This document shows positions 24,242 through 43,636 of a DNA stretch of 64,000 nucleotides, one piece after another. Both the position numbers and the translations under genes were made by a program. Numbering within the stretch: the stretch's first letter is position 1; each line of letters begins with the position of its first letter. The DNA is from a phage: the sequence record PZ495249.1; one strand, written 5' to 3'. The notes beneath the pieces were generated by a model, which had not been told where the DNA came from, did no database searches, and was given only the letters and a program-made list of their open reading frames with translations.

Positions 24242-24742
24242 ATGGCTAAAGTAGTAGATGAGTTTGATATGCTACGCCTTGACGAGGGACTAAAGCTCAC
24301 CGTCTATACAGATACCGAAGGGTATTGGACAGTGGGTATTGGTCATCTCTTAACGAAAGTCAAAGATAAAGCGGTTGCTATCGCTGAACTGGATAAGCTG
24401 GTAGGTCGTAAGACCAATGGTGTTATCACAGAAGACGAAGCACGTACAATCTTCAAGAAAGACGTTGAAAAGGCTATCAAGCAGGTTAAACAGAGTAAGA
24501 TTCTATCTCCGATTTACGATAAGGTGAGTCCTACTCGTAAAATGGCAATTGTCAATATGGTATTCCAAATGGGGATTGCCGGAGCAGAATCTTTCCAAAA
24601 TAGCTTGACATTAGTGAGCAATTCGTACTATACTCAGGCTGGTATCAATTTACGTAAAAGTAAGTGGTACAAACAAACGCCTAATCGTGCAGAGCGAGTT
24701 ATCAAGGTTCTTACATCTGGAACACTTGATGCTTATAACTAA
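24242..24742 (+). CDS. endolysin, T4-type lysozyme (GH24 muramidase)
   Basis: Track ORF 24173..24742 trimmed to ATG at 24242; MLRLDEGLKLTVYTDTEGYWTVGIGHLL and WYKQTPNRAERVI nearly colinear with T4 lysozyme (recalled). Confidence 0.85.
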   Translation: MAKVVDEFDMLRLDEGLKLTVYTDTEGYWTVGIGHLLTKVKDKAVAIAELDKLVGRKTNGVITEDEARTIFKKDVEKAIKQVKQSKILSPIYDKVSPTRKMAIVNMVFQMGIAGAESFQNSLTLVSNSYYTQAGINLRKSKWYKQTPNRAERVIKVLTSGTLDAYN

Positions 24743-26785: not shown

Positions 26786-27226
26786 ATGTTAGAAATTCCA
26801 GCTTCATTCATGGATAAGAACGTCCATGCATACCAGCAAATCTGTAAGCGAGCAAAGAATACACTGGATGCTATTGTCAGCAAACGTTATGTCATTTCTG
26901 AAAAGAAATGGTTCCGTACTATTCACTACGAAGTGAACGTTTTCGGTGAATGCAAACACAGAACAGGATCTACCGAGAGAATTCTGGAATGGATGCTTGA
27001 AAACGACCATATTTCCTCTCAAGACTATCAACTGCTCAAGTTCTACGACATGTCCAACATGGTAGATATTGTCATCGACAATCTCCAGGAACGCCGTAAC
27101 GAGAGCGATAAGGTGTCTGTGAATATGGATGAAATGCAACTCCTGTATTACATTGGAACGTTCACAGAAGACCCCACTTTAACGAAAGAGGAACTTCTTT
27201 TTGGCGAACAAGTACGACCGACCTGA
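26786..27226 (+). CDS. hypothetical protein
   Basis: Track ORF with AAGGAGGAG RBS. Confidence 0.5.
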   Translation: MLEIPASFMDKNVHAYQQICKRAKNTLDAIVSKRYVISEKKWFRTIHYEVNVFGECKHRTGSTERILEWMLENDHISSQDYQLLKFYDMSNMVDIVIDNLQERRNESDKVSVNMDEMQLLYYIGTFTEDPTLTKEELLFGEQVRPT

Positions 27227-27710
27227 GTCGGATTATTACCCAACACCACAAAAGTGTATTGAAGCACTGTTCAGTGTTATTGATTTTAAAAATTTGAGAG
27301 AAGAGGGTTGGCACTTTGCCGAGCCATGCCGAGGGGAAGCATCTGCGATTTATCAGCACTTCCCCGAAGGTTCAGAATATTGCGAGTTAGAAGAGGGTAA
27401 AGATTACTTTGCCAGTGTATGGGAAACCAAACCGGACATTATAATCACAAACCCTCCATTCAAACTGGCATTAGAGTTCTTGCAAAAGAGCTTACAAGAA
27501 GCAGACGTATCTATCTACCTGTTACGTTTGGGATTTCTGGAATCTAAGAAACGTCGAGATTTCCATAAAGCCAACCCTCCAACCAACTTGATTATTCTCT
27601 CTGAGCGACCATCGTTTGTTGCGGGTGGCACAGACAAGACAGCGTATGCCTGGTACGTCTATGATCCAAAACAAAGGCTTGGGCTTACCCAACCTTTCTA
27701 TTTTGTATAA
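27201..27710 (+). CDS. phage-type DNA N6-adenine methyltransferase-like
   Basis: Track ORF (TTG start); SDYYPTP and NPPF motifs. Confidence 0.55.
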   Translation: MANKYDRPESDYYPTPQKCIEALFSVIDFKNLREEGWHFAEPCRGEASAIYQHFPEGSEYCELEEGKDYFASVWETKPDIIITNPPFKLALEFLQKSLQEADVSIYLLRLGFLESKKRRDFHKANPPTNLIILSERPSFVAGGTDKTAYAWYVYDPKQRLGLTQPFYFV

Positions 27711-27719
27711 GGATGATTA

Positions 27720-27923
27720 ATGGCCTACAACTACTATCTTGTGTATGTTCACGAGAACACGAAAGAAGACACTGGAACGAACGTCTACGCTGAGTCGGAA
27801 GACCATGCAAAGGCTATCGGGGCAGTTCTTCTTACACGCATGACAGGGGAAGAATTTACATCGGCTGATGTTTACGCAGAAGTAGATCCTGATATGCAAG
27901 AAGATGATATCACAACCACTTGA
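27720..27923 (+). CDS. hypothetical acidic protein
   Basis: Track ORF. Confidence 0.45.
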   Translation: MAYNYYLVYVHENTKEDTGTNVYAESEDHAKAIGAVLLTRMTGEEFTSADVYAEVDPDMQEDDITTT

Positions 27924-27948
27924 CAATAGTTTTGTGTTAGTGCATACT
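27920..27948 (+). promoter_or_regulatory. sigma70-like promoter
   Basis: TTGACA-17nt-CATACT upstream of recombinase gene. Confidence 0.5.
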
Positions 27949-27973
27949 CATTGAAACAGCATAGGAGGGTGTC

Positions 27974-28636
27974 ATGAAATTCGTACTTTACCATCGTCTT
28001 TCCAAAAAGAAACAGCAAGGCAACCAATACGGTATTGAATCACAGGAAGTTGATATTCAACGTTTCCTGGACTCGCAAGAGAACTATACCGTGATCGGGA
28101 CTTTCGCTGAATACTACTCTGGTAAAGGTGACTGGAAGCAACGTAGAGAACTGGTGAAAGCCGTGGAACTCTGCAAAGCAACTGGTGCAACACTTGTGGT
28201 TGCAAAGGTTGACCGTTTAGGTCGTAACACTGCCTCAGTTGCAACGCTTCTCGAAATGGTGAATGTTCGTATTGCTACGATGCCCTCCGCTGAGAATATG
28301 GTGATTAATATCCTCGCCGTTCTCGCAGAAGAAGAAGCACGAGCGATCTCTGATCGTGTGAGAAAAAGTTTGAAAGTTGCCAAAGAGAAAGGTATACTCC
28401 TTGGTGCTGCAAATGAAAAATACAATCGTACAGATTACTCTAAGAGAGAGGAATCAAAGCGCTCTATGGAATTTGCCATGAGCATGAAAGATTCCCTTGT
28501 TGCTTTCCGTTCAATGAACACACCGTTCATGACAATTGCAAAGCATCTTAACGAAAGCGGTAAAACTACTATCCGAGGCAGCAAGTTTGATGCGAAAGCT
28601 GTCCAGCGCTTATGTTCTAAGTTAGAAATCAACTGA
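27974..28636 (+). CDS. serine recombinase (resolvase/invertase family)
   Basis: Track ORF; YHRLSKKKQ...GIESQ catalytic-Ser region, VAKVDRLGRN, C-terminal HTH-like segment. Confidence 0.7.
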   Translation: MKFVLYHRLSKKKQQGNQYGIESQEVDIQRFLDSQENYTVIGTFAEYYSGKGDWKQRRELVKAVELCKATGATLVVAKVDRLGRNTASVATLLEMVNVRIATMPSAENMVINILAVLAEEEARAISDRVRKSLKVAKEKGILLGAANEKYNRTDYSKREESKRSMEFAMSMKDSLVAFRSMNTPFMTIAKHLNESGKTTIRGSKFDAKAVQRLCSKLEIN

Positions 28637-28647
28637 GGAGGTTTGGT

Positions 28648-28842
28648 GTGATTACCCATGAGGAGACAATCGTCAAGAATTTTCCGTCAAAACGTCAGAT
28701 GGTGGAGTTTGTCCATTTTCTGGAGGCTGACGAAATACTTATCCAACGTCAAGGGGAAACCTGGAACGTTTTATACAATGCCAACAAAACCACTGTAACT
28801 CTGTCCGAAGATGATTTCTCCGAGGTAGACGTTATGAGTTGA
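28648..28842 (+). CDS. hypothetical protein
   Basis: Track ORF. Confidence 0.4.
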   Translation: MITHEETIVKNFPSKRQMVEFVHFLEADEILIQRQGETWNVLYNANKTTVTLSEDDFSEVDVMS

Positions 28843-28860
28843 GTTTTAAGGAGTACAACT

Positions 28861-29433
28861 ATGCGTTTAGCTTCAACAGGTAAAATCAACACGACCAATG
28901 TCCTAACGGCTGTTGGTCTATTAAGCAAACATTTTGTACCCGCAAATTTACCAGTTTGCGTAGACTTCGATCATGTCTTTGATATTGCAAGTCCTTCACG
29001 CTGCTTTGCCCGTAGTAACATCGAGAATCCCAGTGAGAATCTATTTTACATCGTTAAACCATCTCAGGCGATCCTGAATCAAGTGGAAGCGGGTATTATT
29101 CTCCCAGGTAAATACTTCTCACTACTTCCGTGTAAATCAATTGCTATCGAAGATAGCGTAAATTATGCCAACAACTTAGTTGTTGCTGCCTACATTGTGT
29201 CAGAACAAGAATCTACCGCAGAATTAGCGAACGTAGTCAAAAGTGTTTACGATGCAATGGGTGTTGCTTACACAACCTTTATCTGTGAGGATAAACCTCA
29301 TTGCGTAGAGTTTGTGGTTAACGGTGTAACAGTGTGTAGAGTAGAAACATTCTTAGTATATGATTATTATGTTTCAGTAGCCAGTGTAGTATCTGAACCT
29401 GTGTTCAGTATTGCATGTTCACTAACTTATTGA
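28861..29433 (+). CDS. hypothetical protein
   Basis: Track ORF. Confidence 0.5.
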   Translation: MRLASTGKINTTNVLTAVGLLSKHFVPANLPVCVDFDHVFDIASPSRCFARSNIENPSENLFYIVKPSQAILNQVEAGIILPGKYFSLLPCKSIAIEDSVNYANNLVVAAYIVSEQESTAELANVVKSVYDAMGVAYTTFICEDKPHCVEFVVNGVTVCRVETFLVYDYYVSVASVVSEPVFSIACSLTY

Positions 29434-29443
29434 GGAGGAGGGA

Positions 29444-29755
29444 ATGAGAATCACAACAGAAGGTGCTTTAGTCAACAAAGGTAGGGAGATCTTGGAAAGC
29501 CATTTCCCAGACATTGAGAAAACTCCTGGTTATCTTGGCTGGCGTATGCAAGAAACTGTGGATTTTCTCCCTCATCAAACTTCAATATTTCTTCTCGTCA
29601 AAGTAGAAGGTGACACGCCATACAAAGATGTAGCGGAGCACATCGAAAGAGTAGAAGACGTGGCTTACGCCGAATTTGCCTACCTGGATATCGCACCAGA
29701 ATTAGAAGGGAAGGTGAATATATTTATTCTAATGGATTTTGAGGAGGAGACATGA
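29444..29755 (+). CDS. hypothetical protein
   Basis: Track ORF. Confidence 0.5.
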   Translation: MRITTEGALVNKGREILESHFPDIEKTPGYLGWRMQETVDFLPHQTSIFLLVKVEGDTPYKDVAEHIERVEDVAYAEFAYLDIAPELEGKVNIFILMDFEEET

Positions 29756-30489
29756 TCTTATATAAACACATCGATCTGAATGATGATCAAGAGTTGTTCA
29801 TTGTTGGTGATTTGCATGGTTCATATGACCTGTACACCAAGGGTGCTCACATACTTGGTATTCGTGAAGAAGATGTGGTGATTTCCCTTGGTGATTTAAC
29901 AGATCGTGGGGAACAGAACTTGCGTTGTGTACTGGAGTTCACCAGAAAGAAAAACCACTATGCTATTCGTGGTAATCACGAGGACATGATGATCCGTGGT
30001 ATGCTGGAAGGTAGCAGAGACTACTACCAGTGCTGGTATCAAAATGGTGGCTGGACTGTCTGGAACGAAATGGGTGAAGAAGGTGTAACTCTTCTTGCCA
30101 CAATGGTAGAAGAACTGCCTGTGGTGTTGACAGCCTCACATCGTGGGAAAACATATGGCTTCATTCATGGTGGATATCCTTCTGTTTTTGAACACTTACC
30201 ACTTACCGATATTCCAAAACTTAATCTTGAAGGTGAGCGCCTCCAGGCTTTTGCTGAAAGTTTAATGTGGGATCGCGATATGGTAACTTGTGCTCAGGAA
30301 GGTCTAAGTCTGCCGAAAGTTCTTGGTGTGGATTATGTCTTTCATGGACATTCTTACGTACCGGAGCCGTTGATCAACGCCAACCGTGTTTATATGGACA
30401 CTGGCGGTGTATTTAACAACAATCTCACCTTTGCATACTTTGATGTGGATGGTGAACTTAAATTTTATTCAACTCTTGAGGAGGATTGA
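29752..30489 (+). CDS. PPP-family Ser/Thr protein phosphatase (lambda-phosphatase-like)
   Basis: Track ORF; GDLHG, GDLTDRG, GNHE. Confidence 0.75.
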   Translation: MILYKHIDLNDDQELFIVGDLHGSYDLYTKGAHILGIREEDVVISLGDLTDRGEQNLRCVLEFTRKKNHYAIRGNHEDMMIRGMLEGSRDYYQCWYQNGGWTVWNEMGEEGVTLLATMVEELPVVLTASHRGKTYGFIHGGYPSVFEHLPLTDIPKLNLEGERLQAFAESLMWDRDMVTCAQEGLSLPKVLGVDYVFHGHSYVPEPLINANRVYMDTGGVFNNNLTFAYFDVDGELKFYSTLEED

Positions 30490-30755
30490 TGTATAAAATT
30501 ACAATCAAGCGAACTGTTGGAGATATCGTTACAGAAACGACTATTGAGACAGATGACCTTGAATTAGCCAAAGAAATTTTGGTGTCAGAAGAGATTATCA
30601 AAGTTGAAACTGATGTTCCGAATGAGAGTATTGATCCTGGTATGGAATCTCTGAAAGAACTATGGAGAAAACATCTGGACGATATATGGAAAAACCCGCG
30701 CACAGGCGTTCCATATGAAACAGGAACTCCCTGGCCTTTCACAGTAACTTGTTAA
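30486..30755 (+). CDS. hypothetical protein
   Basis: Track ORF. Confidence 0.45.
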   Translation: MMYKITIKRTVGDIVTETTIETDDLELAKEILVSEEIIKVETDVPNESIDPGMESLKELWRKHLDDIWKNPRTGVPYETGTPWPFTVTC

Positions 30756-30764
30756 GGTGACGAT

Positions 30765-31337
30765 ATGAGCGACTTATTTTATACGGGCGTTGGAAGTCGT
30801 GATATCACAGATGAAGAATGGGATGTAATGGTAGCTGTTGCCAAATGGTTGGCACAGTGGTGTAAACTTCGATCAGGTAAAGCCGGAGGTTCGGACTCTG
30901 CATTTGAATATGGGGTGTCCTTATCGGACTTCCCTGACAACAAGGAGATCTATATTCCTTGGCCTAAATTTGAAGGGAATGAAATTCCAGGTGAAAAGAT
31001 TTCTCTTGATCGTCCAGACAGCGTAAACTATGCTCTGACTTTGCAGTATGCGAAAGAGATTCATCCGGCTTGGGATAAACTTTCTCAGGGTGCTAAGAAA
31101 TTACATCAGAGAAACATACACCAAGTGTTGGGACGAGATCTGGAAAACCCTGCACCATCCATATTCTTGCTGGCGTGTTCAGACGAGGATAAGAACGGAG
31201 ATGTGAAAGGCGGTACTCGAACTGCTTGGCTGCTGGCTAAGAAGTTTAATGTTCCGTGTTTCAATATTCGAGGAAAAACGAAAAGAGAGATCTTCGAATT
31301 TATTCAACCTATCTTGAAGGAGAAACTTAATGCTTGA
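30765..31337 (+). CDS. hypothetical protein, possible SLOG/DprA-like Rossmann domain
   Basis: Track ORF; GVGSRDIT and RSGKAGGSD motifs; tentative. Confidence 0.4.
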   Translation: MSDLFYTGVGSRDITDEEWDVMVAVAKWLAQWCKLRSGKAGGSDSAFEYGVSLSDFPDNKEIYIPWPKFEGNEIPGEKISLDRPDSVNYALTLQYAKEIHPAWDKLSQGAKKLHQRNIHQVLGRDLENPAPSIFLLACSDEDKNGDVKGGTRTAWLLAKKFNVPCFNIRGKTKREIFEFIQPILKEKLNA

Positions 31338-31866
31338 TGCATATCAAAGGGGCGGTGCTCGCCCCAATATCAGTGAGATGTATAGTCCGGTTGTCGATTT
31401 AACACCAATGATCACTAAACGTGTTATGGATACTATCGAGAAAGGTACATGGGTGGTGAGTGATAAGATTGAGTTTCGTTATCACAAGACGATTGTTGCT
31501 GTTAGTGACAATGGCGCGGCAATGAATGTTCCATTCTATCCCTTGGATAAGACTCTCACTCAAGAAGAGATTGAGGAAATTAACCTCCACGTCCTGGGTT
31601 ATGTCCCATTTGAGAATACGGTCATCCAGACCTACACCACTCTAATGGTAAATGAGATCCTACGCGCAATTACCCGTGTCTTGGATGAGGGTGTAAGAAA
31701 AATCATCGTACATTTCTGTCCCGCTGATACACCGGAATATGCTAACACTGTGGCTTATCCGCTGTATGGTTTTATTGCTAATGGTGTTCTTCAAATGGAA
31801 ACTTCTTTCCTGATTGAAGAAATAAAAAATGACTTTTCTGTTGACATAGATCAAGGTGGTTGGTAA
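31330..31866 (+). CDS. hypothetical protein
   Basis: Track ORF. Confidence 0.5.
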   Translation: MLDAYQRGGARPNISEMYSPVVDLTPMITKRVMDTIEKGTWVVSDKIEFRYHKTIVAVSDNGAAMNVPFYPLDKTLTQEEIEEINLHVLGYVPFENTVIQTYTTLMVNEILRAITRVLDEGVRKIIVHFCPADTPEYANTVAYPLYGFIANGVLQMETSFLIEEIKNDFSVDIDQGGW

Positions 31867-32052
31867 ACTCTTCGGAAATTGTCAATAACAACTGGAGGTA
31901 AGAGATGAAAACGACAGAACAACTGATCGCGCAGAAACTGGAAGAAGCAATTGTGATGGCTCGTGCTGAGGGCTTAGGTCAAAACTATTTCAACATCACC
32001 CTCGAAGATGGTGAAAATGTTGAAGTGAACGTTCAATGGCGATCTTCTTCCT

Positions 32053-32346
32053 ATGACTGCTAATGTGGGATTAGAACACTCCTTCCTTGCCTCTTGGCAA
32101 GGATGGGATGAAGTGGGAAGTGCAGGTGATCTTTGCTTCTATGGTTGCACTTTAGCGAACCACCTGAAAGGGATGGAGCCAGAGGGAACCAAGGAGATTA
32201 TTACAATCTTCCTGATGAGTGAGTCAACTGTGCAATTTGACTTCTACGGTGAGAGCGCGTTTTCTGACCCTCGTGATGCTTACTTGGGAAGCAAAGCATT
32301 TAAAATTAAAGCAGTATTAGAAGAGGAGATTCCTTGCGATGAGTAA
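32053..32346 (+). CDS. hypothetical protein
   Basis: Track ORF. Confidence 0.45.
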   Translation: MTANVGLEHSFLASWQGWDEVGSAGDLCFYGCTLANHLKGMEPEGTKEIITIFLMSESTVQFDFYGESAFSDPRDAYLGSKAFKIKAVLEEEIPCDE

Positions 32347-32758
32347 ATATGTAACTGGTCAAATTTTTGAAGACAACTGGGATGACGAAGTGGGGCGTAT
32401 TGTATACGCTAACGGCATCTGGTCTAACGATGAAGACCGCGCTGCCTTTGAAGATTCGTATGGCGGAATGCCGGACGATATGCCAGAGGTGATCCTGTAC
32501 GAATTCATGTACCATGATGAATTTGTCGAGGGCGAAGCAGCGATCAAAGATTTTGTTCGTGAGCATGGCCTTATCGACGTTGCAGAGCGTGAGTGTAAAG
32601 ATCGAGAACGCCAAGTGATTGTTGATACCCTGAATGCAATGGGCGTAGATACCGCCGATCTGATTGTTTCAGAAGGTCGTGTTTACATGGGGAGCGACGA
32701 GTGTGAAGCCTATATTCAAGGCAGTCATGCTTGGTGTTCAAGTAGCATGATTTGCTAA
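32339..32758 (+). CDS. hypothetical acidic protein, paralog family with C-terminal W-x-SSS-x-C motif
   Basis: Track ORF; ends HAWCSSSMIC. Confidence 0.5.
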   Translation: MSKYVTGQIFEDNWDDEVGRIVYANGIWSNDEDRAAFEDSYGGMPDDMPEVILYEFMYHDEFVEGEAAIKDFVREHGLIDVAERECKDRERQVIVDTLNAMGVDTADLIVSEGRVYMGSDECEAYIQGSHAWCSSSMIC

Positions 32759-32767
32759 GGAGAGTGG

Positions 32768-33202
32768 ATGTATAATAACACTGATAATCTCGAAGTCGGA
32801 AAAGACTTCTACGATCTGAATACTGGTGAGTATGTCTTTACCGTTATTTATGATGGTGACGACGACACCCGCATCCTGGTAGAAGGTATCCCAACAAAGG
32901 TGCAGAGTCAGTATAGTGATTACATGTATGATATCGTGGCATACAATAAGGACACTATGCACCCTTTAGACGAAGATGATGTGAACGATATTTGTTACAA
33001 CAATTTGATTGTCACAAAGGAATATCTGGACGCCATCAATGCCACGAAACAAGTATTGATTAATATCTGGGAACAATCTGGTATTCAAGAACCATTCGTG
33101 TATGAAGATGGGAATTTCTATGTTGGTAAAGAACAAGTTCTTTCAGCCCACATTAATTCCGGCTACGAACACGGTTGGATTTCGAGTAGTATCTGCTGGT
33201 GA
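32768..33202 (+). CDS. hypothetical acidic protein, same paralog family
   Basis: Track ORF; ends HGWISSSICW. Confidence 0.5.
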   Translation: MYNNTDNLEVGKDFYDLNTGEYVFTVIYDGDDDTRILVEGIPTKVQSQYSDYMYDIVAYNKDTMHPLDEDDVNDICYNNLIVTKEYLDAINATKQVLINIWEQSGIQEPFVYEDGNFYVGKEQVLSAHINSGYEHGWISSSICW

Positions 33203-33426
33203 GTGTTGGAACTGTAGCGGTATGGATAAAGTCTGAATCTGGTGATGATTATCTGTACTGCTTTGAGAACCAATCCTTAGAGCAAATTTCCAACAATCTG
33301 ACAGAGAACCTGGAAATGTTTTGCCCTATTTGTGATTGGAAAACTACCGGAGACAATAAAGACTTCGTTAGTGATGTTAAGATGTTTATGTCGGATTTAT
33401 ATGATAAATCATGGGAGAGAGAATGA
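33199..33426 (+). CDS. hypothetical protein
   Basis: Track ORF. Confidence 0.45.
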   Translation: MSVGTVAVWIKSESGDDYLYCFENQSLEQISNNLTENLEMFCPICDWKTTGDNKDFVSDVKMFMSDLYDKSWERE

Positions 33427-33617
33427 GTGAATTTAAAACAGTAAGTGAAGCAGTGGCAGCGGCAAATGCTGCCCTCGCTGAGGCAGAACGCCTATCTCTG
33501 GAAACAGGTGAAGGGTTTGGTTTCCATCCGTGTTATGGTATGGGCGGTTACTTCGATCCAGAAGAAGAAAACGAGTACACTGGGGATCACTGGTTCCCAT
33601 CTTCACTGGGTTGCTAA
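33411..33617 (+). CDS. hypothetical protein, same paralog family (short)
   Basis: Track ORF; ends HWFPSSLGC. Confidence 0.45.
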   Translation: MGERMSEFKTVSEAVAAANAALAEAERLSLETGEGFGFHPCYGMGGYFDPEEENEYTGDHWFPSSLGC

Positions 33618-33973
33618 TGCAGCCATTTGAGTGTAAAGTGTTTATTGCAGGGCATGAAGTTATGCCCTTTGATGAAAACGTGAGTATTGAGATAAGGAGA
33701 ACACCTGTGGACAAGAAAGAAATTGAAAACCTGATCCGTGAAAAAACTGCTGCTGCCGAAGCCTACATGCAGTCTGTGAAAGACGAAGTGGCTGAACTGG
33801 CAGATAAAGCTGGCGTTCAGGCTTATTGGGGCGAATATGGTAGCGGTGAAACCTACTACCCTGTTGGTACAGATGTAAATGCCGAATACATCGGTTGGGA
33901 AGCGAGTGAGTATGCAGATGAGAACGGTATCCTGACTCAAGGTATGTGGATCTCTTCAAGCTCTATGTGCTAA
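33617..33973 (+). CDS. hypothetical acidic protein, same paralog family
   Basis: Track ORF 33530..33973 trimmed to ATG at 33617; ends GMWISSSSMC. Confidence 0.5.
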   Translation: MQPFECKVFIAGHEVMPFDENVSIEIRRTPVDKKEIENLIREKTAAAEAYMQSVKDEVAELADKAGVQAYWGEYGSGETYYPVGTDVNAEYIGWEASEYADENGILTQGMWISSSSMC

Positions 33974-33986
33974 GAGTGTAACTATT

Positions 33987-34010
33987 AACCCGCTTCGGCG
34001 GGTTTTTTAT
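33987..34010 (+). terminator. rho-independent terminator (same hairpin as 11916)
   Basis: AACCCGCTTCGGCGGGTTTTTTATTG. Confidence 0.7.
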
Positions 34011-34020
34011 TGCCTGAGTA

Positions 34021-34049
34021 TTGACACGTTAATCAAAACCTGGTAAACT
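34021..34049 (+). promoter_or_regulatory. sigma70-like promoter
   Basis: TTGACA-17nt-TAAACT. Confidence 0.55.
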
Positions 34050-34079
34050 CTGGGAATCATTTAAGAGAGGAGAAACATT

Positions 34080-35009
34080 ATGATTATGGTTGGTAGCCGT
34101 GGTTTAGAGATTCAATTAGAACGGGAGGCTAAGAAATTTTATCGCCCTTGTCTTGATCTTGACTTTCTTTGCACAGAGAAGGAGTGGAGTATAGCATTCA
34201 TCCGTTACACCCACGAAGAAGGCGTTGAGCTTGTGGAACGTACTGGCAACAAAGGTCATGTCAAACTGACAGATGGGACACATATCGAGTTTGATATTGC
34301 TCAACCTGGCGATAGCACAGATATTCTGATCCAATATTGCAAGGCAAACCCACAGAGTATGTTCCTTAACAACGGTGATTTCGTGGCTCCGGTGGATGTT
34401 CTGTATCTGCTGAAAATGAGTCATCGTTATAAGAAGAATAGCCCTCATTTCTTCAAGACCATGAATGATATCCATTTCATGCGTTCTCTTGGGGCTAAGA
34501 TCCCAGTGGAATTAGAAGAAGTGTTTAAGCTGCGTGAGAAAGAGACTTACGATTACTCACACCCAAATCTGGATGTGAAGAGCAAAGACTTCTTCAAAGG
34601 TGATGAAGTGCCGTATGTTTACGATCACGACACGATTCATGAAGCAGTGGCGGTGTTGGGTGTACCTGCATACAAATCTTACATGAAAGATGACAGCGAA
34701 GTGATGACTTCCAAAGAGAAGTTCTTTGAACAGGAAAATCATATCCGTCTTCTCGGTGTGTACGAAGAGAGCTGCGTACTGGCACTGGAACGTTCGCAGA
34801 TTCCGTTCAATTTCGAGGTTCCGGCTCGTCAGAGTTTTGTTATGGCACTTAGTAAAGTTTGCACATCGATCACTTCCGGCTGGTTCCGTGAGTACGCCTG
34901 GGAGAACTTCGGGGTTGTCATGAAGTTCTATGAAAGCATGGGTGAAACTGATTACATTGAGCGATTCAAAGCTAATCAACACCTGGTTAAACCATTCGAG
35001 GGGGAATAA
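34080..35009 (+). CDS. hypothetical protein (309 aa)
   Basis: Track ORF with GAGAGGAGAAAC RBS; no confident domain. Confidence 0.5.
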   Translation: MIMVGSRGLEIQLEREAKKFYRPCLDLDFLCTEKEWSIAFIRYTHEEGVELVERTGNKGHVKLTDGTHIEFDIAQPGDSTDILIQYCKANPQSMFLNNGDFVAPVDVLYLLKMSHRYKKNSPHFFKTMNDIHFMRSLGAKIPVELEEVFKLREKETYDYSHPNLDVKSKDFFKGDEVPYVYDHDTIHEAVAVLGVPAYKSYMKDDSEVMTSKEKFFEQENHIRLLGVYEESCVLALERSQIPFNFEVPARQSFVMALSKVCTSITSGWFREYAWENFGVVMKFYESMGETDYIERFKANQHLVKPFEGE

Positions 35010-35399
35010 ATGGGTTATTTAAATGATACATACATCACACCTACTAAGGATCAATTAAGTATGGCTCTTATTAAGGTGAAACGTGTGCGCGAACTCTACA
35101 AACCAATTAATGAGCGTTTGGAGAAGGAGACAGTAGAGGTTAAAAGTTGGTGGGGTTTACGCCGTAAGGTGATGACTAAAGATCAGCACATCCGTAAAGC
35201 TAACGAAAATTCTTTCATGCCGTTTTATGGTCGTGCATTTCTGCTCGGATACATAACAGCAGAAGAATACCAAATCTGCCGTTTCCTGATGGAGGCTCCA
35301 GGAGTGAAGACACTCCAAAAATGGGAAACAGCGGAGAGAGTATATCTTTGTGAAGATGACCACAGACAGTTGATGTTTGCTTTAACTGAGGAGATTTAA
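35010..35399 (+). CDS. hypothetical protein
   Basis: Track ORF. Confidence 0.5.
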   Translation: MGYLNDTYITPTKDQLSMALIKVKRVRELYKPINERLEKETVEVKSWWGLRRKVMTKDQHIRKANENSFMPFYGRAFLLGYITAEEYQICRFLMEAPGVKTLQKWETAERVYLCEDDHRQLMFALTEEI

Positions 35400-36076
35400 T
35401 GTCGAAAGTAGTATGGTGTTTATTTGATGGTAGTGGTATTATGGGATTACCCTGGGCTGAGGCTGGATACCAAGTTTATTGCTTTAATGCCAGTAGCGGA
35501 GATCACGGAGAGTATGAAATTAAAGTGGATCACCCTTTGATCACTTACGTCGATACTTGGATTGACTCTACCTTTGATCCAACAGGTATGGGTGACAACG
35601 GCGGTGATGCTCCTACGTTTATTATCGGCTTCCCGCCTTGTACAATGCTCGCTGGTAGTGGAGAGCAACACGAGCGTACTGCGGAAGAGATCGAAGAGGC
35701 GCTTCAAAACGTCCGTATCGTCGAAACTTTGGGTAATAAGTATGGTGTGCCGTGGATGATTGAGAATCCAGTGGGTAAATTGTCCACACTCTGGCGTAAG
35801 CCGGACTACTACTTCGATCCGTATGAGTTTGGTGGTTATCTCCGAAAAGAGGAAGGTAGTTATCACCCTAAAATGCCAGTACAGGATGCCTATACGAAGA
35901 AAACCTGCCTATGGGTAGGCAATGGTTTCGTATTCCCTGATAAAAAACCCGTAGAACATATTGGTTTCTTCTGGGGATGGCGTTATCTCGGTGGTAAGAG
36001 TAATCGAACAAAACAGTTGCGATCTCTCACCCCTCGTGGGTTTGCTCGCGCAGTGTTTAAGGCTAATAGGAGGTAG
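35399..36076 (+). CDS. compact C5-cytosine methyltransferase-like protein
   Basis: Track ORF; LFDGSGIMG (motif I-like), GFPPC (Pro-Cys motif IV), ENPVG (motif VI); only 225 aa. Confidence 0.5.
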   Translation: MSKVVWCLFDGSGIMGLPWAEAGYQVYCFNASSGDHGEYEIKVDHPLITYVDTWIDSTFDPTGMGDNGGDAPTFIIGFPPCTMLAGSGEQHERTAEEIEEALQNVRIVETLGNKYGVPWMIENPVGKLSTLWRKPDYYFDPYEFGGYLRKEEGSYHPKMPVQDAYTKKTCLWVGNGFVFPDKKPVEHIGFFWGWRYLGGKSNRTKQLRSLTPRGFARAVFKANRR

Positions 36077-36077
36077 T

Positions 36078-36191
36078 ATGTGGAGAGGGTGGCAGGGCGC
36101 ACTGATTCTTGTGTGCATACCAATTAGTTTTCTTGGTTGGGCTTTTTGGGAATTTGTATTCTGGTTGTTCCACAACTTACATTGGGGGTGA
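36078..36191 (+). CDS. small hydrophobic membrane protein (37 aa)
   Basis: Track ORF 35961..36191 trimmed to ATG at 36078 after AGGAGG. Confidence 0.35.
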   Translation: MWRGWQGALILVCIPISFLGWAFWEFVFWLFHNLHWG

Positions 36192-36193
36192 AA

Positions 36194-36835
36194 ATGACAA
36201 AGAAACTGGTGGCGTATCAAGTTGATCGGGACGATTACGAAGGTAGTGTAATTGTTTTTGACTCTCACGGCTTGGCTGCTCGCCGCCGTGGGGCTTCGAT
36301 GTTAGACCTTGGCGGAGAAGATGAGTATTGCCAGGTAAGACGTGTAAAAGATTTCGATCAATATGCGGAAAAGGGCTACGTTCCTTATAAGGCTTTGCTG
36401 GAACATGGTTGGTGGTTACACTCGGCTCATGATGGTCGAAAAATCACAGAGGACTACTGCTACGATGAATACGAGGACGAGGAGGTAGAAACACCTGAAC
36501 TTGTCTTCTTCCAGAACGAGCAGGGTGTGTGGTTTGATTGGGATGAAATGGAACGCCATGCCTATTCTATTAACGAAGCAAAAGATCGCTTTGATTGGTG
36601 GATTGAAACGGTTATGCGTTGCTACCCACATCTTACCTTCACTAAGTTTGAAGGTGGACCTGGACGTATTACTCACACAGCCAACTTCACCTTCCCTGGT
36701 GCTCAGTATGGCGGTGGTCACATCCGTTGGGATTGGGAGGAAGGTGTAACACCAGATCCTAAAGAACATTTCTCCAGTTGGGTTGCCACAGGAGATAAAG
36801 AAGCATTTGACAAGTACCTCGAAAGTGTGGTATAG
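36194..36835 (+). CDS. hypothetical protein
   Basis: Track ORF 36137..36835 trimmed to ATG at 36194. Confidence 0.5.
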   Translation: MTKKLVAYQVDRDDYEGSVIVFDSHGLAARRRGASMLDLGGEDEYCQVRRVKDFDQYAEKGYVPYKALLEHGWWLHSAHDGRKITEDYCYDEYEDEEVETPELVFFQNEQGVWFDWDEMERHAYSINEAKDRFDWWIETVMRCYPHLTFTKFEGGPGRITHTANFTFPGAQYGGGHIRWDWEEGVTPDPKEHFSSWVATGDKEAFDKYLESVV

Positions 36836-36889: not shown

Positions 36890-37450
36890 ATGGGATTTGA
36901 TGACATGTTGGACTATGAGGGAAACTGCGTTAAAGAAGCTCTGGCCTTACCAGAACTGGAGATCACCATCACAGTGTATGACACTTATTCCGATTGTGAA
37001 ACTTGCGGTGCATACTGGAGCAGAGTTCTTGAAGTAGATGGAGACTTAGGGGAATTCCAGAGTGGTGATCGTGCAAGTTGTTTGGGTAGTAATGATGACG
37101 GTACTTATCACGAAGTTGCTCAATGGATTAACGCGCGACTTGAAGAGCATGGTCGTCCTGTTCCTGTACTATTGACACCGGATGCAATGCTGCAAGCTGA
37201 TAACGAGTATTACGCTCAAGCGGCTTTGGTGAACTATGATTATAATCATCCTTCGCTTGAGGCATTAGGACATAAAGCAGGTTGTCTGTCAGATGCTTTT
37301 GATGCATACTATACGTTAGACAGTCTGAAACGATTGTATTCTGCATTCGGTGTGACCATTTATGATGATCACAAGGCAGATGAGGTTTACGATGCCAGCG
37401 ATTGGGGCGATTATGAAGATAATGAGGAAGAAGAATGCCAAGACGACTGA
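36890..37450 (+). CDS. hypothetical acidic protein
   Basis: Track ORF 36863..37450 trimmed to ATG at 36890 after GGAGGA. Confidence 0.5.
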   Translation: MGFDDMLDYEGNCVKEALALPELEITITVYDTYSDCETCGAYWSRVLEVDGDLGEFQSGDRASCLGSNDDGTYHEVAQWINARLEEHGRPVPVLLTPDAMLQADNEYYAQAALVNYDYNHPSLEALGHKAGCLSDAFDAYYTLDSLKRLYSAFGVTIYDDHKADEVYDASDWGDYEDNEEEECQDD

Positions 37451-38250
37451 TTGTAATTTCTGGTGCAGGACTTAGCGCCGATAGTGGTGTACGTACATTC
37501 CGTACCGACACCGAAAGTGGAAAAGCACTTTGGGACGAATACGATCTTGCAGAGGTTTGTGATATTGGAGCATTCCAAGCTGGCTATCGTCGCCGTACAT
37601 CACCAGATGTTCCGGTTGTTGGTGGTATCGACGATGAAGGGATGGATCTGTACGAGAAGACAAACAACTTCTACAACAAACGCCGTGTGGAACTTGCAAC
37701 TGTAGAGCCTAACGCTGCACACCTTCAAATCGCTAAGTGGTTTGCAATGGCTCCTGAGCGTGTCTACAACATCACGACTAACGTTGATGACCTGTTGGAA
37801 CGTGCTGGCGTTGCTCGTGAATCTGTACTTCACGTCCACGGCTACTTACCAGAAATCCGTTATCGCTTAGAACCTGGTTCACAGGAACAACTTGTGGATG
37901 TAGGGTACGCTCATGTCGATATTGACGCATTCCATTGGACAAAACCTAACGTTGTGTTCTTTGGTGAGGCTGCACCACTCTATAATGACATGTACGCACT
38001 GTTCGACACGCTAACATCTCAGGATATGGTGATTGTGGTTGGCTGCTCTAACCAAGTGATCAACTTCAACTGGGAACTCTTCCCGATGCTTAACATCGGA
38101 ACTAAGATGGTTGTGGTGAACCCTGGGGTTAACTACCTGGAGACAGAAATGTATCAAGAACGGGGCGTGTTTGTTTATCGCGCCGGAGCCGCAGAAGCGT
38201 TCAGCAATGAGCACTTCATTAAGATGGTAGAGGATCACCTGAATGGTTAG
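37435..38250 (+). CDS. SIR2-family (sirtuin/CobB-like) NAD+-dependent protein lacking the Zn-ribbon cysteines
   Basis: Track ORF; GAGLSADSGVRTFR, PNAAHLQIAKW, TTNVDDLLERAG, HVHGY, VVFFGE align with CobB (recalled); no CxxC pairs. Confidence 0.75.
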   Translation: MPRRLIVISGAGLSADSGVRTFRTDTESGKALWDEYDLAEVCDIGAFQAGYRRRTSPDVPVVGGIDDEGMDLYEKTNNFYNKRRVELATVEPNAAHLQIAKWFAMAPERVYNITTNVDDLLERAGVARESVLHVHGYLPEIRYRLEPGSQEQLVDVGYAHVDIDAFHWTKPNVVFFGEAAPLYNDMYALFDTLTSQDMVIVVGCSNQVINFNWELFPMLNIGTKMVVVNPGVNYLETEMYQERGVFVYRAGAAEAFSNEHFIKMVEDHLNG

Positions 38251-39382: not shown

Positions 39383-40375
39383 TTAGTGAGTCTGCGTTTT
39401 GAACGGAAGACGCTCATTGAATTCACGAGCACTACCTGTCAACTTGCCATCAGTGAAATAATAGCAGAATTCACCGTCTGGTGTGGACACACGTACAGCA
39501 TCAATCAGGTTGAACGGAACAGAAATGTTGTTACGAATCTCAATTCCACCAATATTTCTGCTGGTATCCACATGAAGTGCCTGATGTTCTGCACTCACTA
39601 CAACGTACTCAGCACGACGAATCTGATAGTCTTTACCATCTTTGTACAAGATGTACACGATGGTTTGCTTACGCTTTTCAGGCGCTTTACGCTGACGGCG
39701 CGGTGCATTCTTACTTGGTTTAACTGCAATCAGATCTTCGGCATCGTAGTGGTTAATCATGCCATTCTTCCAACGCACAGAGTACACATACATGTTATCT
39801 GGTGTTAATCCAGCCTTTTCGACAATCCCTTTCATGTTAATCGGATTCCAGCCGTACTCACCTAAGCCCACAAATTTTGATTTAGGATTGAGTACCACCA
39901 CATTTCCGTAGTTGAATACAGGCAGTGGCTTATTATCAGATAAAGGTGTGCTTGCATCCACCTCTTTCACCATACGAGGAACAAACATCCATGCACGAGG
40001 TACGAACTGATCGCCACCTTCGCCGTGAGGGAAGTGGATAAATACATTGTACCCTGCCAGATCACCTGAACGATACACACGTTCAGCATCGAACACTTTG
40101 CCTACAAGCTGATCTTTAAATGAATAACTACCATCTAAAATCTGTACTTTAACTTTGTTCATATCTGACATAGGTTTCTCCTCAATAATTTCAATGTTGT
40201 GTAAGTCGAAAATCCACGTAGTTCCTGGTGGGTATTTAAGGATACTATCATGTTCATGATCGATAATCAACCATGCACAACCAAGTTCCTCGTTTATTTC
40301 CGCCACTGAATAAGTGTTACCTACGACTTCTTCTTTGAAGCTGTAGCTTCTTGAGCGCAACACCTTAGCTCTCAT
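39383..40375 (-). CDS. hypothetical protein with internal duplicated segment
   Basis: Track ORF 330 aa; SYSFKEEVVGNTYSV and SYSFKDQLVGKVF repeats. Confidence 0.55.
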   Translation of the reverse strand: MRAKVLRSRSYSFKEEVVGNTYSVAEINEELGCAWLIIDHEHDSILKYPPGTTWIFDLHNIEIIEEKPMSDMNKVKVQILDGSYSFKDQLVGKVFDAERVYRSGDLAGYNVFIHFPHGEGGDQFVPRAWMFVPRMVKEVDASTPLSDNKPLPVFNYGNVVVLNPKSKFVGLGEYGWNPINMKGIVEKAGLTPDNMYVYSVRWKNGMINHYDAEDLIAVKPSKNAPRRQRKAPEKRKQTIVYILYKDGKDYQIRRAEYVVVSAEHQALHVDTSRNIGGIEIRNNISVPFNLIDAVRVSTPDGEFCYYFTDGKLTGSAREFNERLPFKTQTH

Positions 40376-43003: not shown

Positions 43004-43636
43004 TTATTTGTATGGATAAAACAGATTGTTACCTTCAATCTCTTTGTGGTAGATCGGTTTATTCTTGGCAATATATGCCAGCTTTTCAGCAGTTTGGATG
43101 TTTGGTGCAGGGTTTTCACCGAACACATCCTCAGAGTGGATGTAGCTCAACCCACGGATAGGGAATCCCCAACCAGCATCAGACCCAGTAAGACCTGCCT
43201 TTATTGCACGATGTGATCGTGCGGCATCTTCGTAACCGTAACGGTTATATTCAAGATTATACCCGCCAATCGTTTCCATTGCAAGTTTATCTTGATAAAC
43301 GAAACAACCAAGAGCACTGAACCAGTAAGTGATATCACTCTCAGCATACAAGAACTCACCACCGAAGATATCTGGCAGAACCATGTAGTGAATACCATTT
43401 GCTTGCGCTTCCTGGATGAAATAATCTTCCCAACCCAGACGAGTTGGATAACAGTCGTCATCAAAGATGAATACGTGATCGTAGCCATCAAAGTGAGCAA
43501 GCACCTGATTACGTGCATGACCAGGACCAAGCCGCTCTATATCTGTGTAGATAAAGGTTTCGTGCGTAGTTTTCTCAAAGAACTTCGGATTAATCTCACG
43601 AAGTCCCATAGTGATTACGCCAACGCCAATTTTCAT
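43004..43636 (-). CDS. GT-A fold (family-2-like) glycosyltransferase
   Basis: Track ORF; DDD (DxD) motif and GGYNLEYNRYGYEDAARSHR. Confidence 0.6.
   Translation of the reverse strand: MKIGVGVITMGLREINPKFFEKTTHETFIYTDIERLGPGHARNQVLAHFDGYDHVFIFDDDCYPTRLGWEDYFIQEAQANGIHYMVLPDIFGGEFLYAESDITYWFSALGCFVYQDKLAMETIGGYNLEYNRYGYEDAARSHRAIKAGLTGSDAGWGFPIRGLSYIHSEDVFGENPAPNIQTAEKLAYIAKNKPIYHKEIEGNNLFYPYK

Follow-up and report, generated by a model that had tools for sequence, protein, structure and literature searches.

Two compact orphan methyltransferase-like genes, with little beyond a catalytic core, in a divergent Stephanstirmvirinae-type phage

We analysed two methyltransferase-like genes in a 64,000-nucleotide (nt) stretch of phage DNA (record PZ495249.1; one strand, 5' to 3'), which we refer to as the window. 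One encodes a protein resembling N6-adenine methyltransferases (the N6-like protein) and the other a protein resembling C5-cytosine methyltransferases (the C5-like protein). Both genes are real, conserved members of phage families that have already been annotated and, as judged from sequence comparisons and structural models, the likeness of both proteins to methyltransferases is well beyond chance. We consider it probable that both are conserved orphan phage enzymes that comprise little beyond the methyltransferase catalytic core and that most likely methylate phage DNA. An earlier note on this DNA had called both genes, at 27201-27710 and 35399-36076; the two open reading frames (ORFs) lie at precisely these positions, on the plus strand, and both fold and catalytic motifs agree with that call.

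Results

Two conserved orphan genes in a divergent phage genome

The window belongs to a Stephanstirmvirinae-type myovirus in which both genes lie within a co-directional early/middle gene block. Its nearest GenBank relatives are the Klebsiella phages FKP3 and KP13-26 and coliphages of the phi92 and phAPEC8 types (Stephanstirmvirinae). These match a 9.2-kb query only in part, with coverage of at most 41% and a nucleotide identity of 75-85% that is mostly 75-80%. The window phage is a new, divergent genome of the Stephanstirmvirinae/phi92-phAPEC8 group. Protein identity to the relatives is 85-87% for the N6-like protein and 70-80% for the C5-like protein, which, set against the patchy nucleotide similarity across the 9.2 kb, points to purifying selection. 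The C5-like protein is also 99% identical to a copy on 152-kb metagenomic contigs, where the local gene order is the same.

Of 50,697 phage records, 542 contain homologues of the N6-like protein and 1,510 contain homologues of the C5-like protein. Full-length N6-like homologues are mostly 165-180 amino acids long and nearly all of the 120 best C5-like homologues are 215-240 amino acids long, so these are compact families and not truncated genes. The earlier description of the 225-residue C5-like protein as unusually small is therefore apt in comparison with canonical C5 enzymes (about 310 amino acids or more) but not within its own family, where this length is the norm. The N6-like protein, with 169 amino acids, is reduced still further. 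AlphaFold models built on homologue alignments were confident for both proteins, with predicted local distance difference test (pLDDT) values of 81.7 and 90.5, and a search of a viral fold library returned matches only to other small phage methyltransferases.

The earlier note had also reported that neither gene has a restriction endonuclease nearby. This was borne out: of the 20 flanking ORFs from 24.8 to 38.3 kb, all searched in PHROGs, eight in Pfam and five in PADLOC, none matched a restriction endonuclease, and both genes are thus orphans. The annotated syntenic region of FKP3 also contains no restriction endonuclease; it has an HNH homing endonuclease, which the window lacks.

The C5-like protein

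To place the C5 motifs (Table 1), the window protein was aligned in MAFFT with seven family members, M.HhaI (a sequence 100% identical to PDB 10MH) and CmoX of phage S-B43 (taken from GenBank MN018232, where its SPPC motif and Arg350 were confirmed); two modes gave the same mapping. The predicted catalytic C81 aligns with C81 of M.HhaI and C98 of CmoX, and the adjacent T82 with Q82 and S99. In motif VI, E122-N123-P124 aligns with E119-N120-V121 of M.HhaI and E-N-V of CmoX, and the degenerate motif X aligns with K-Q-F-G303-N304-S-V-V of M.HhaI and E-R-V-G349-R350-M-V-P of CmoX. When the family alignment was compared with M.HhaI alone in hhalign only motifs I-IV were aligned, and the placement of motifs VI and X comes from MAFFT. 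The motif VIII-like strand reads Y-T-K-K-T-C-L-W, in an uncertain register. Only about 35 residues separate this strand from motif X, so that the protein has neither a recognition domain nor motif IX. Specificity has a single candidate in this protein, the short loop ahead of motif X, which is invariant in the closest 32 homologues and differs in distant ones.

At the level of profiles, the C5-like protein matches PHROG 757 ('DNA methyltransferase') over residues 1-224 with an E value of 5e-82. Matches to PF00145 were weak, below threshold and confined to 5 of the 32 homologues (best 3.1e-6), and single-sequence and profile searches of the PDB with the C5-like protein gave no match. At 31-39% identity, members from Arthrobacter phages, Vibrio phages and cyanophages still have the catalytic residues (D10-G-S-G13, C81 and E122-N-P), and these members and those from Sortsnevirus keep the signatures 'CT', 'ENP', 'K-x-T' and 'RSxT'. 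With the structural model the top match was DNMT3B and the third-best was CmoX, so that C5 enzymes with two-base targets (CpG for DNMT3B, GC for CmoX) are among the best-ranked matches. As a comparison, the canonical C5 enzymes of PF00145, for which M.HhaI is the model, are about 100 residues longer, and the C5-like protein has Thr for Gln82 of M.HhaI, K-x-T for R-x-R, and Arg-Ser for Gly303-Asn304. The catalytic domain of the eukaryotic DNMT3A and DNMT3B is about 280 amino acids long, keeps the canonical motifs and needs partner domains; it shares 15% identity with the C5-like protein.

The C5-like ORF begins with an ATG that is preceded by GAGGAG and overlaps the upstream ORF in the sequence TAATG. 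At the other end, the window protein terminates in ...KANRR and the 99%-identical metagenomic copy runs on for 12 residues (...KANRGVKNDKETGGVSS). The gene that follows overlaps the C5-like gene in the metagenomic copy, whereas in the window its likely true start (MTKKL, near 36194) comes after a gap of some 117 nt. Together, the difference in the protein terminus and this gap suggest an indel at the 3' end, within 36011-36194.

The N6-like protein

The N6-like ORF starts with TTG, 7 bases downstream of GAGGAA, and shares its first 26 nt with the upstream ORF. Its homologues start at the same residue in an alignment of 35 of them, on which the statements about conservation below are based. The motifs follow in the order X, I, IV with NPPF, which is the arrangement of the gamma class (Table 1). 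Both motifs quoted in the earlier note were confirmed: DYYPTP occupies residues 11-16 and NPPF residues 84-87. The former aligns with 'YFTP' of the StySJI type I M subunit. The latter is the only [DNS]PP[YFWH] motif that a regular-expression scan found among window ORFs of at least 100 amino acids; position 87 is Phe in most family members and Tyr in a few. An acidic Glu62, Asp68-Tyr69 and Arg136-Pro137-x-Phe139 are likewise invariant or nearly so, with R136-P137 invariant across the homologues.

After motif VIII the N6-like protein has only a 30-residue beta-hairpin and nothing that resembles a recognition domain. M.TaqI, MmeI and the type I HsdM subunits have a large recognition domain or an HsdS subunit, and the window protein has neither. 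We also found no specificity partner for the gene, in that there is no HsdS-like neighbour and no partner is kept across phage groups. Six of the aligned homologues (P0177, P0207, P0218, P0228, P0237 and P0240) carry a four-cysteine zinc ribbon of about 25 residues inserted after motif VIII. This is the site where gamma-class enzymes attach the recognition domain, and the window protein is without the insertion.

The N6-like protein matches PHROG 799 ('DNA methyltransferase') over residues 2-162 (E = 7.5e-56). Family members gave weak, sub-threshold matches to EcoRI_methylase, MTS, Dam and Eco57I, and sequence and profile searches of the PDB with the window protein gave marginal matches to HsdM and DpnA. 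With the structural model the fold matches were PH1948 (13.4), METTL5 (13.1), MmeI (13.1) and M.TaqI (12.9), followed by M.BseCI and type I HsdM subunits.

Table 1. Coordinates of the two methyltransferase-like genes, their motifs and adjoining features in the window (numbering as in the window)
Feature	Position	Strand	Remarks
Promoter-like site TTGACA-18-TATACT	24605..24634	+	Consensus match only; ahead of the run of genes that includes the N6-like gene
146-amino-acid ORF, phrog_15078	26786..27226	+	Function unknown; overlaps the N6-like start by 26 nt; same layout in FKP3
N6-adenine-methyltransferase-like gene	27201..27710	+	169 amino acids; gamma-class catalytic core without target-recognition domain
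Motif X-like DYYPTP, residues 11-16	27231..27248	+	Y13, T15 and P16 invariant or nearly invariant
Motif I EPCRG, residues 41-45	27321..27335	+	Cofactor-binding loop; E41, P42 and C43 invariant, G45 nearly so
Motif IV NPPF, residues 84-87	27450..27461	+	Predicted catalytic; found by regular expression; N84, P85 and P86 invariant
Terminator-like hairpin (33987-34004), then promoter-like site (34021-34049)	33987..34049	+	Consensus matches only; would begin the transcription unit with the C5-like gene
DUF7277/DUF7275 protein, 309 amino acids	34080..35009	+	Function unknown; E = 4e-76
129-amino-acid protein, phrog_16551	35010..35399	+	Abuts the C5-like gene
C5-cytosine-methyltransferase-like gene	35399..36076	+	225 amino acids; catalytic core; about 35 residues between motifs VIII and X
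Motif I FDGSG, residues 9-13	35423..35437	+	D10, G11, S12 and G13 invariant in the closest homologues; aligns to M.HhaI FAGLG (hhalign)
Motif IV P79-P80-C81-T82	35633..35644	+	Predicted catalytic cysteine; P79, C81 and T82 invariant
Motif VI ENPVG, residues 122-126	35762..35776	+	Invariant in the closest homologues
Degenerate motif X K205-Q-L-R208-S209-L-T-P212	36011..36034	+	Placed by two MAFFT modes

Gene context in other phages

In other phages both genes usually occur in replication or early-gene contexts, and these speak for DNA as the substrate. In Vequintavirus the C5-like gene is flanked by helicase, primase-helicase and DNA polymerase genes, in Webervirus it is near a helicase gene, and in Sortsnevirus and in Vibrio and Arthrobacter phages it is beside RusA, NinB, SSB and exonuclease genes; in Salmonella chromosomes it is found within a prophage. 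The N6-like gene is part of an early operon in K139, just upstream of a replication gene, and lies upstream of the gene for DNA polymerase III alpha in phiCDIF1296T. The suggestion in the earlier note that the C5-like protein might act on a non-DNA substrate found no support here; in unrelated phages, members of its family adjoin the genes just listed.

Avoidance of restriction sites

The window avoids restriction sites to an extreme degree. CTAG does not occur at all in the 64 kb, where a maximal-order Markov model predicts about 100 sites and shuffling that preserves dinucleotides gives 174 ± 12. In FKP3 the syntenic 18.5 kb has 31 CTAG sites versus 57 expected, and since FKP3 keeps CTAG, its total loss is specific to the lineage of the window phage. 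GGCC is depleted five-fold (24 versus 109-125 expected), and GGWCC (GGACC/GGTCC) and GACCC/GGGTC are depleted to about 0.2 of expectation. Nearly half of the hexamer palindromes (31 of 64) are absent from the window, compared with 2.6% of non-palindromic hexamers, and those missing include GGATCC, CTGCAG, CCATGG, GTCGAC, CTCGAG, GGTACC, GAGCTC and CCCGGG. This holds throughout the window, with 32-36 palindromes missing in every 16-kb quarter. Nearly all palindromes with at least four G/C are missing, the exceptions being TGCGCA (13), AGCGCT (10) and TCGCGA (9); sites for EcoRI (20) and EcoRV (30) are present.

By contrast with the depleted sites, GCGC (ratio 1.10), TGCA and GATC are not depleted, GCGC being the sole G+C-rich 4-mer palindrome of which this is true. 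The presence of these sites is compatible with protection at them. We also considered reading a target specificity, GCGC, from composition and rejected this as too indirect.

Discussion

Methylation of phage DNA as the probable activity

The explanation that we prefer is that both genes would be expressed from early or middle operons and that the two enzymes would most likely methylate replicating phage DNA. Because the recognition domain is almost absent, the sites would be short or loosely defined. The outcome would be narrow protection or another role at the level of DNA, and not blanket protection from restriction. We infer from the evidence above that DNA is the substrate, that methyl is the group transferred, that the target motifs are short, and also what the biological role may be.

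Several observations weigh against methylation of phage DNA by these proteins. Neither protein reaches any Pfam or NCBIfam threshold. The C5-like protein has no match to PF00145 at E values of up to 1, and the best score of the N6-like protein is 12.6 bits against cut-offs of 23-26 (N6_Mtase, Eco57I, EcoRI_methylase and Dam). The C5-like family is without motif IX and a recognition domain, has P-x-C for PC in most members, and has [TP]-K-x-T for Q-x-R-x-R in motif VIII and R-S for G-N in motif X. The fold of the N6-like protein fits DNA enzymes and the ribosomal RNA (rRNA) N6-methyladenosine (m6A) enzymes PH1948 and METTL5 equally well. For either family we found only predicted functions in the literature, and no report of a methylome, enzymology, recognition site, product or role. 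Finally, rV5-like phages and phi92-like relatives were described in the BASEL study as 'exceptionally susceptible' to restriction-modification systems (PMC8594841), and the window avoids many restriction sites.

These last two points bear on what the enzymes might do for the phage. Close homologues of the N6-like protein are present in BASEL phages of the rV5-like/phi92-like group, and the C5-like gene occurs in the genomes of rV5-like and phAPEC8-like phages. In T1-like phages the BASEL study found methyltransferase genes without a simple link to restriction resistance (PMC8594841). Non-specific or dinucleotide-level methylation of A or C would make most of the site avoidance unnecessary, so any protection must be narrow. 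The earlier proposal of self-protective methylation thus survives as the default reading, but protection of a broad kind by either enzyme is doubtful, weakened by both the sensitivity of the BASEL phages and the extreme avoidance of sites.

Alternative explanations

One alternative is that at least one of the enzymes, more likely the 169-residue N6-like protein, has a non-DNA substrate (rRNA, transfer RNA (tRNA) or protein glutamine) and tunes host or phage translation. The equally good fit of its fold to PH1948 and METTL5, which are small rRNA m6A enzymes, is what speaks for this. However, the structure of METTL5 was solved with TRMT112, and for the N6-like gene we found no TRMT112-like partner and no link to RNA. 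We regard a non-DNA substrate as unlikely.

It is also conceivable, and in our estimate rather improbable, that catalysis in one or both proteins is weak or lost and that such cores work through binding, as a sink for S-adenosylmethionine (SAM), by attaching to DNA, or as a subunit that needs a recognition partner. Recognition domains are absent in both proteins, the C5-like family is without the canonical R-x-R and GN motifs, and one homologue bears the annotation 'putative methyltransferase subunit'. Each gene also overlaps the end of a preceding ORF whose function is unknown, an arrangement that suggests coupled translation. Set against this, there is strict conservation of the catalytic Cys, Glu and NPPF residues and of the cofactor loops between phylogenetically distant members, which a protein that acted purely by binding would not be expected to show. 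In other phage groups the upstream ORFs do not recur as partners, and no separate recognition partner was identified for either protein.

The last alternative is that the C5-like family (phrog_757) transfers a non-methyl group to C5 of cytosine, for example carboxymethyl from carboxy-SAM (Cx-SAM) made by host CmoA. In M.HhaI, the pocket next to the transferable group is lined by Gln82 and Asn304, and smaller residues at these positions lower methylation and raise the transfer of larger groups (PMC3526304). At Gln82, Asn304 and Gly303 the C5-like protein has T82, S209 and R208; these are conserved in the family, so that the pocket residues are naturally small and stand beside an invariant arginine. 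In the natural enzyme CmoX, an Arg at the Asn304 position binds the carboxyl of Cx-SAM, which E. coli CmoA can supply (PMC12783734), and CmoX is a high-ranking structural match of the C5-like model, as noted above. The Thr/Ser pocket together with an invariant Arg one residue earlier makes non-methyl transfer conceivable. However, CmoX (PDB 8YF3; PMC12783734), a phage enzyme that carboxymethylates C5 of cytosine, has 372 amino acids, a full recognition domain, SPPC, Arg350 and adjacent cmoA and cmoY genes. The published signature of CmoX enzymes is SPPC plus Arg at the Asn304 position (PMC12783734), and the window protein has FPPC and Ser209, the serine aligning with Arg350 and Arg208 falling one residue before the Asn304 position. 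A tblastn search with the S-B43 proteins found no cmoA, cmoX or cmoY homologue in the window. The family also occurs in Arthrobacter phages, and a bulky, widespread mark is disfavoured by both the restriction sensitivity of the relatives and the site avoidance. We give this alternative very little weight; if it were true, a modification so far unrecognised would be present in the DNA of T1-like, rV5-like and phi92-like coliphages.

Meaning for the two families

Genome papers on the relatives already name both proteins predicted orphan methyltransferases. The annotated genes of Stephanstirmvirinae, Vequintavirinae and Drexlerviridae (phi92, phAPEC8, rV5 and T1-like phages) are direct homologues in the same gene order and do not differ in kind from those in the window. 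In this respect the finding adds little. Both families are, however, extremely common in therapeutic-candidate coliphages and in Klebsiella phages, and knowing their targets would close an annotation gap. Both proteins are also close to the smallest DNA methyltransferases conceivable. Should they work without a partner, they would reveal how small a protein can be and still flip bases and choose sites, and they could serve as compact tools.

Gene neighbourhood in the window

A consensus scan suggested an operon for each gene. The putative N6 operon consists of PhoH, a 163-amino-acid ORF, an HslV-like peptidase, the 146-amino-acid ORF and the N6-like gene, and the putative C5 operon of the DUF7277/DUF7275 protein, the 129-amino-acid protein and the C5-like gene (Table 1). 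The order of the two genes upstream of the C5-like gene is the same in the metagenomic phage contig with the 99%-identical copy. The DUF7275 gene abuts the methyltransferase gene in FKP3, but neither Webervirus nor Vequintavirus has it there, and the phrog_15078 ORF is not linked to a methyltransferase in rV5, K139 or phiCDIF1296T. We therefore rejected the upstream ORFs as conserved partners, as they are not kept as such outside this phage subfamily.

Two genes on the minus strand were considered as a hypermodification cluster, namely a 330-amino-acid ORF at 39383-40375, which is 30% identical to a 'COOH.NH2 ligase' gene of FKP3 and has no Pfam match, and a glycosyltransferase gene at 43004-43636, 68% identical to its FKP3 counterpart. 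Such a cluster found no support, the window being without the cmo homologues mentioned above.

A link to tRNA was rejected because there are zero tRNA genes in the window. The early block with the two methyltransferase-like genes also encodes a serine recombinase/invertase-like protein at 27974-28636, a protein at 28861-29433 that belongs to a PHROG labelled 'histidyl tRNA synthetase', a DprA-like protein at 30765-31337 and a Sir2-family protein at 37435-38250 (PF02146, E = 4e-21); all four are conserved in FKP3.

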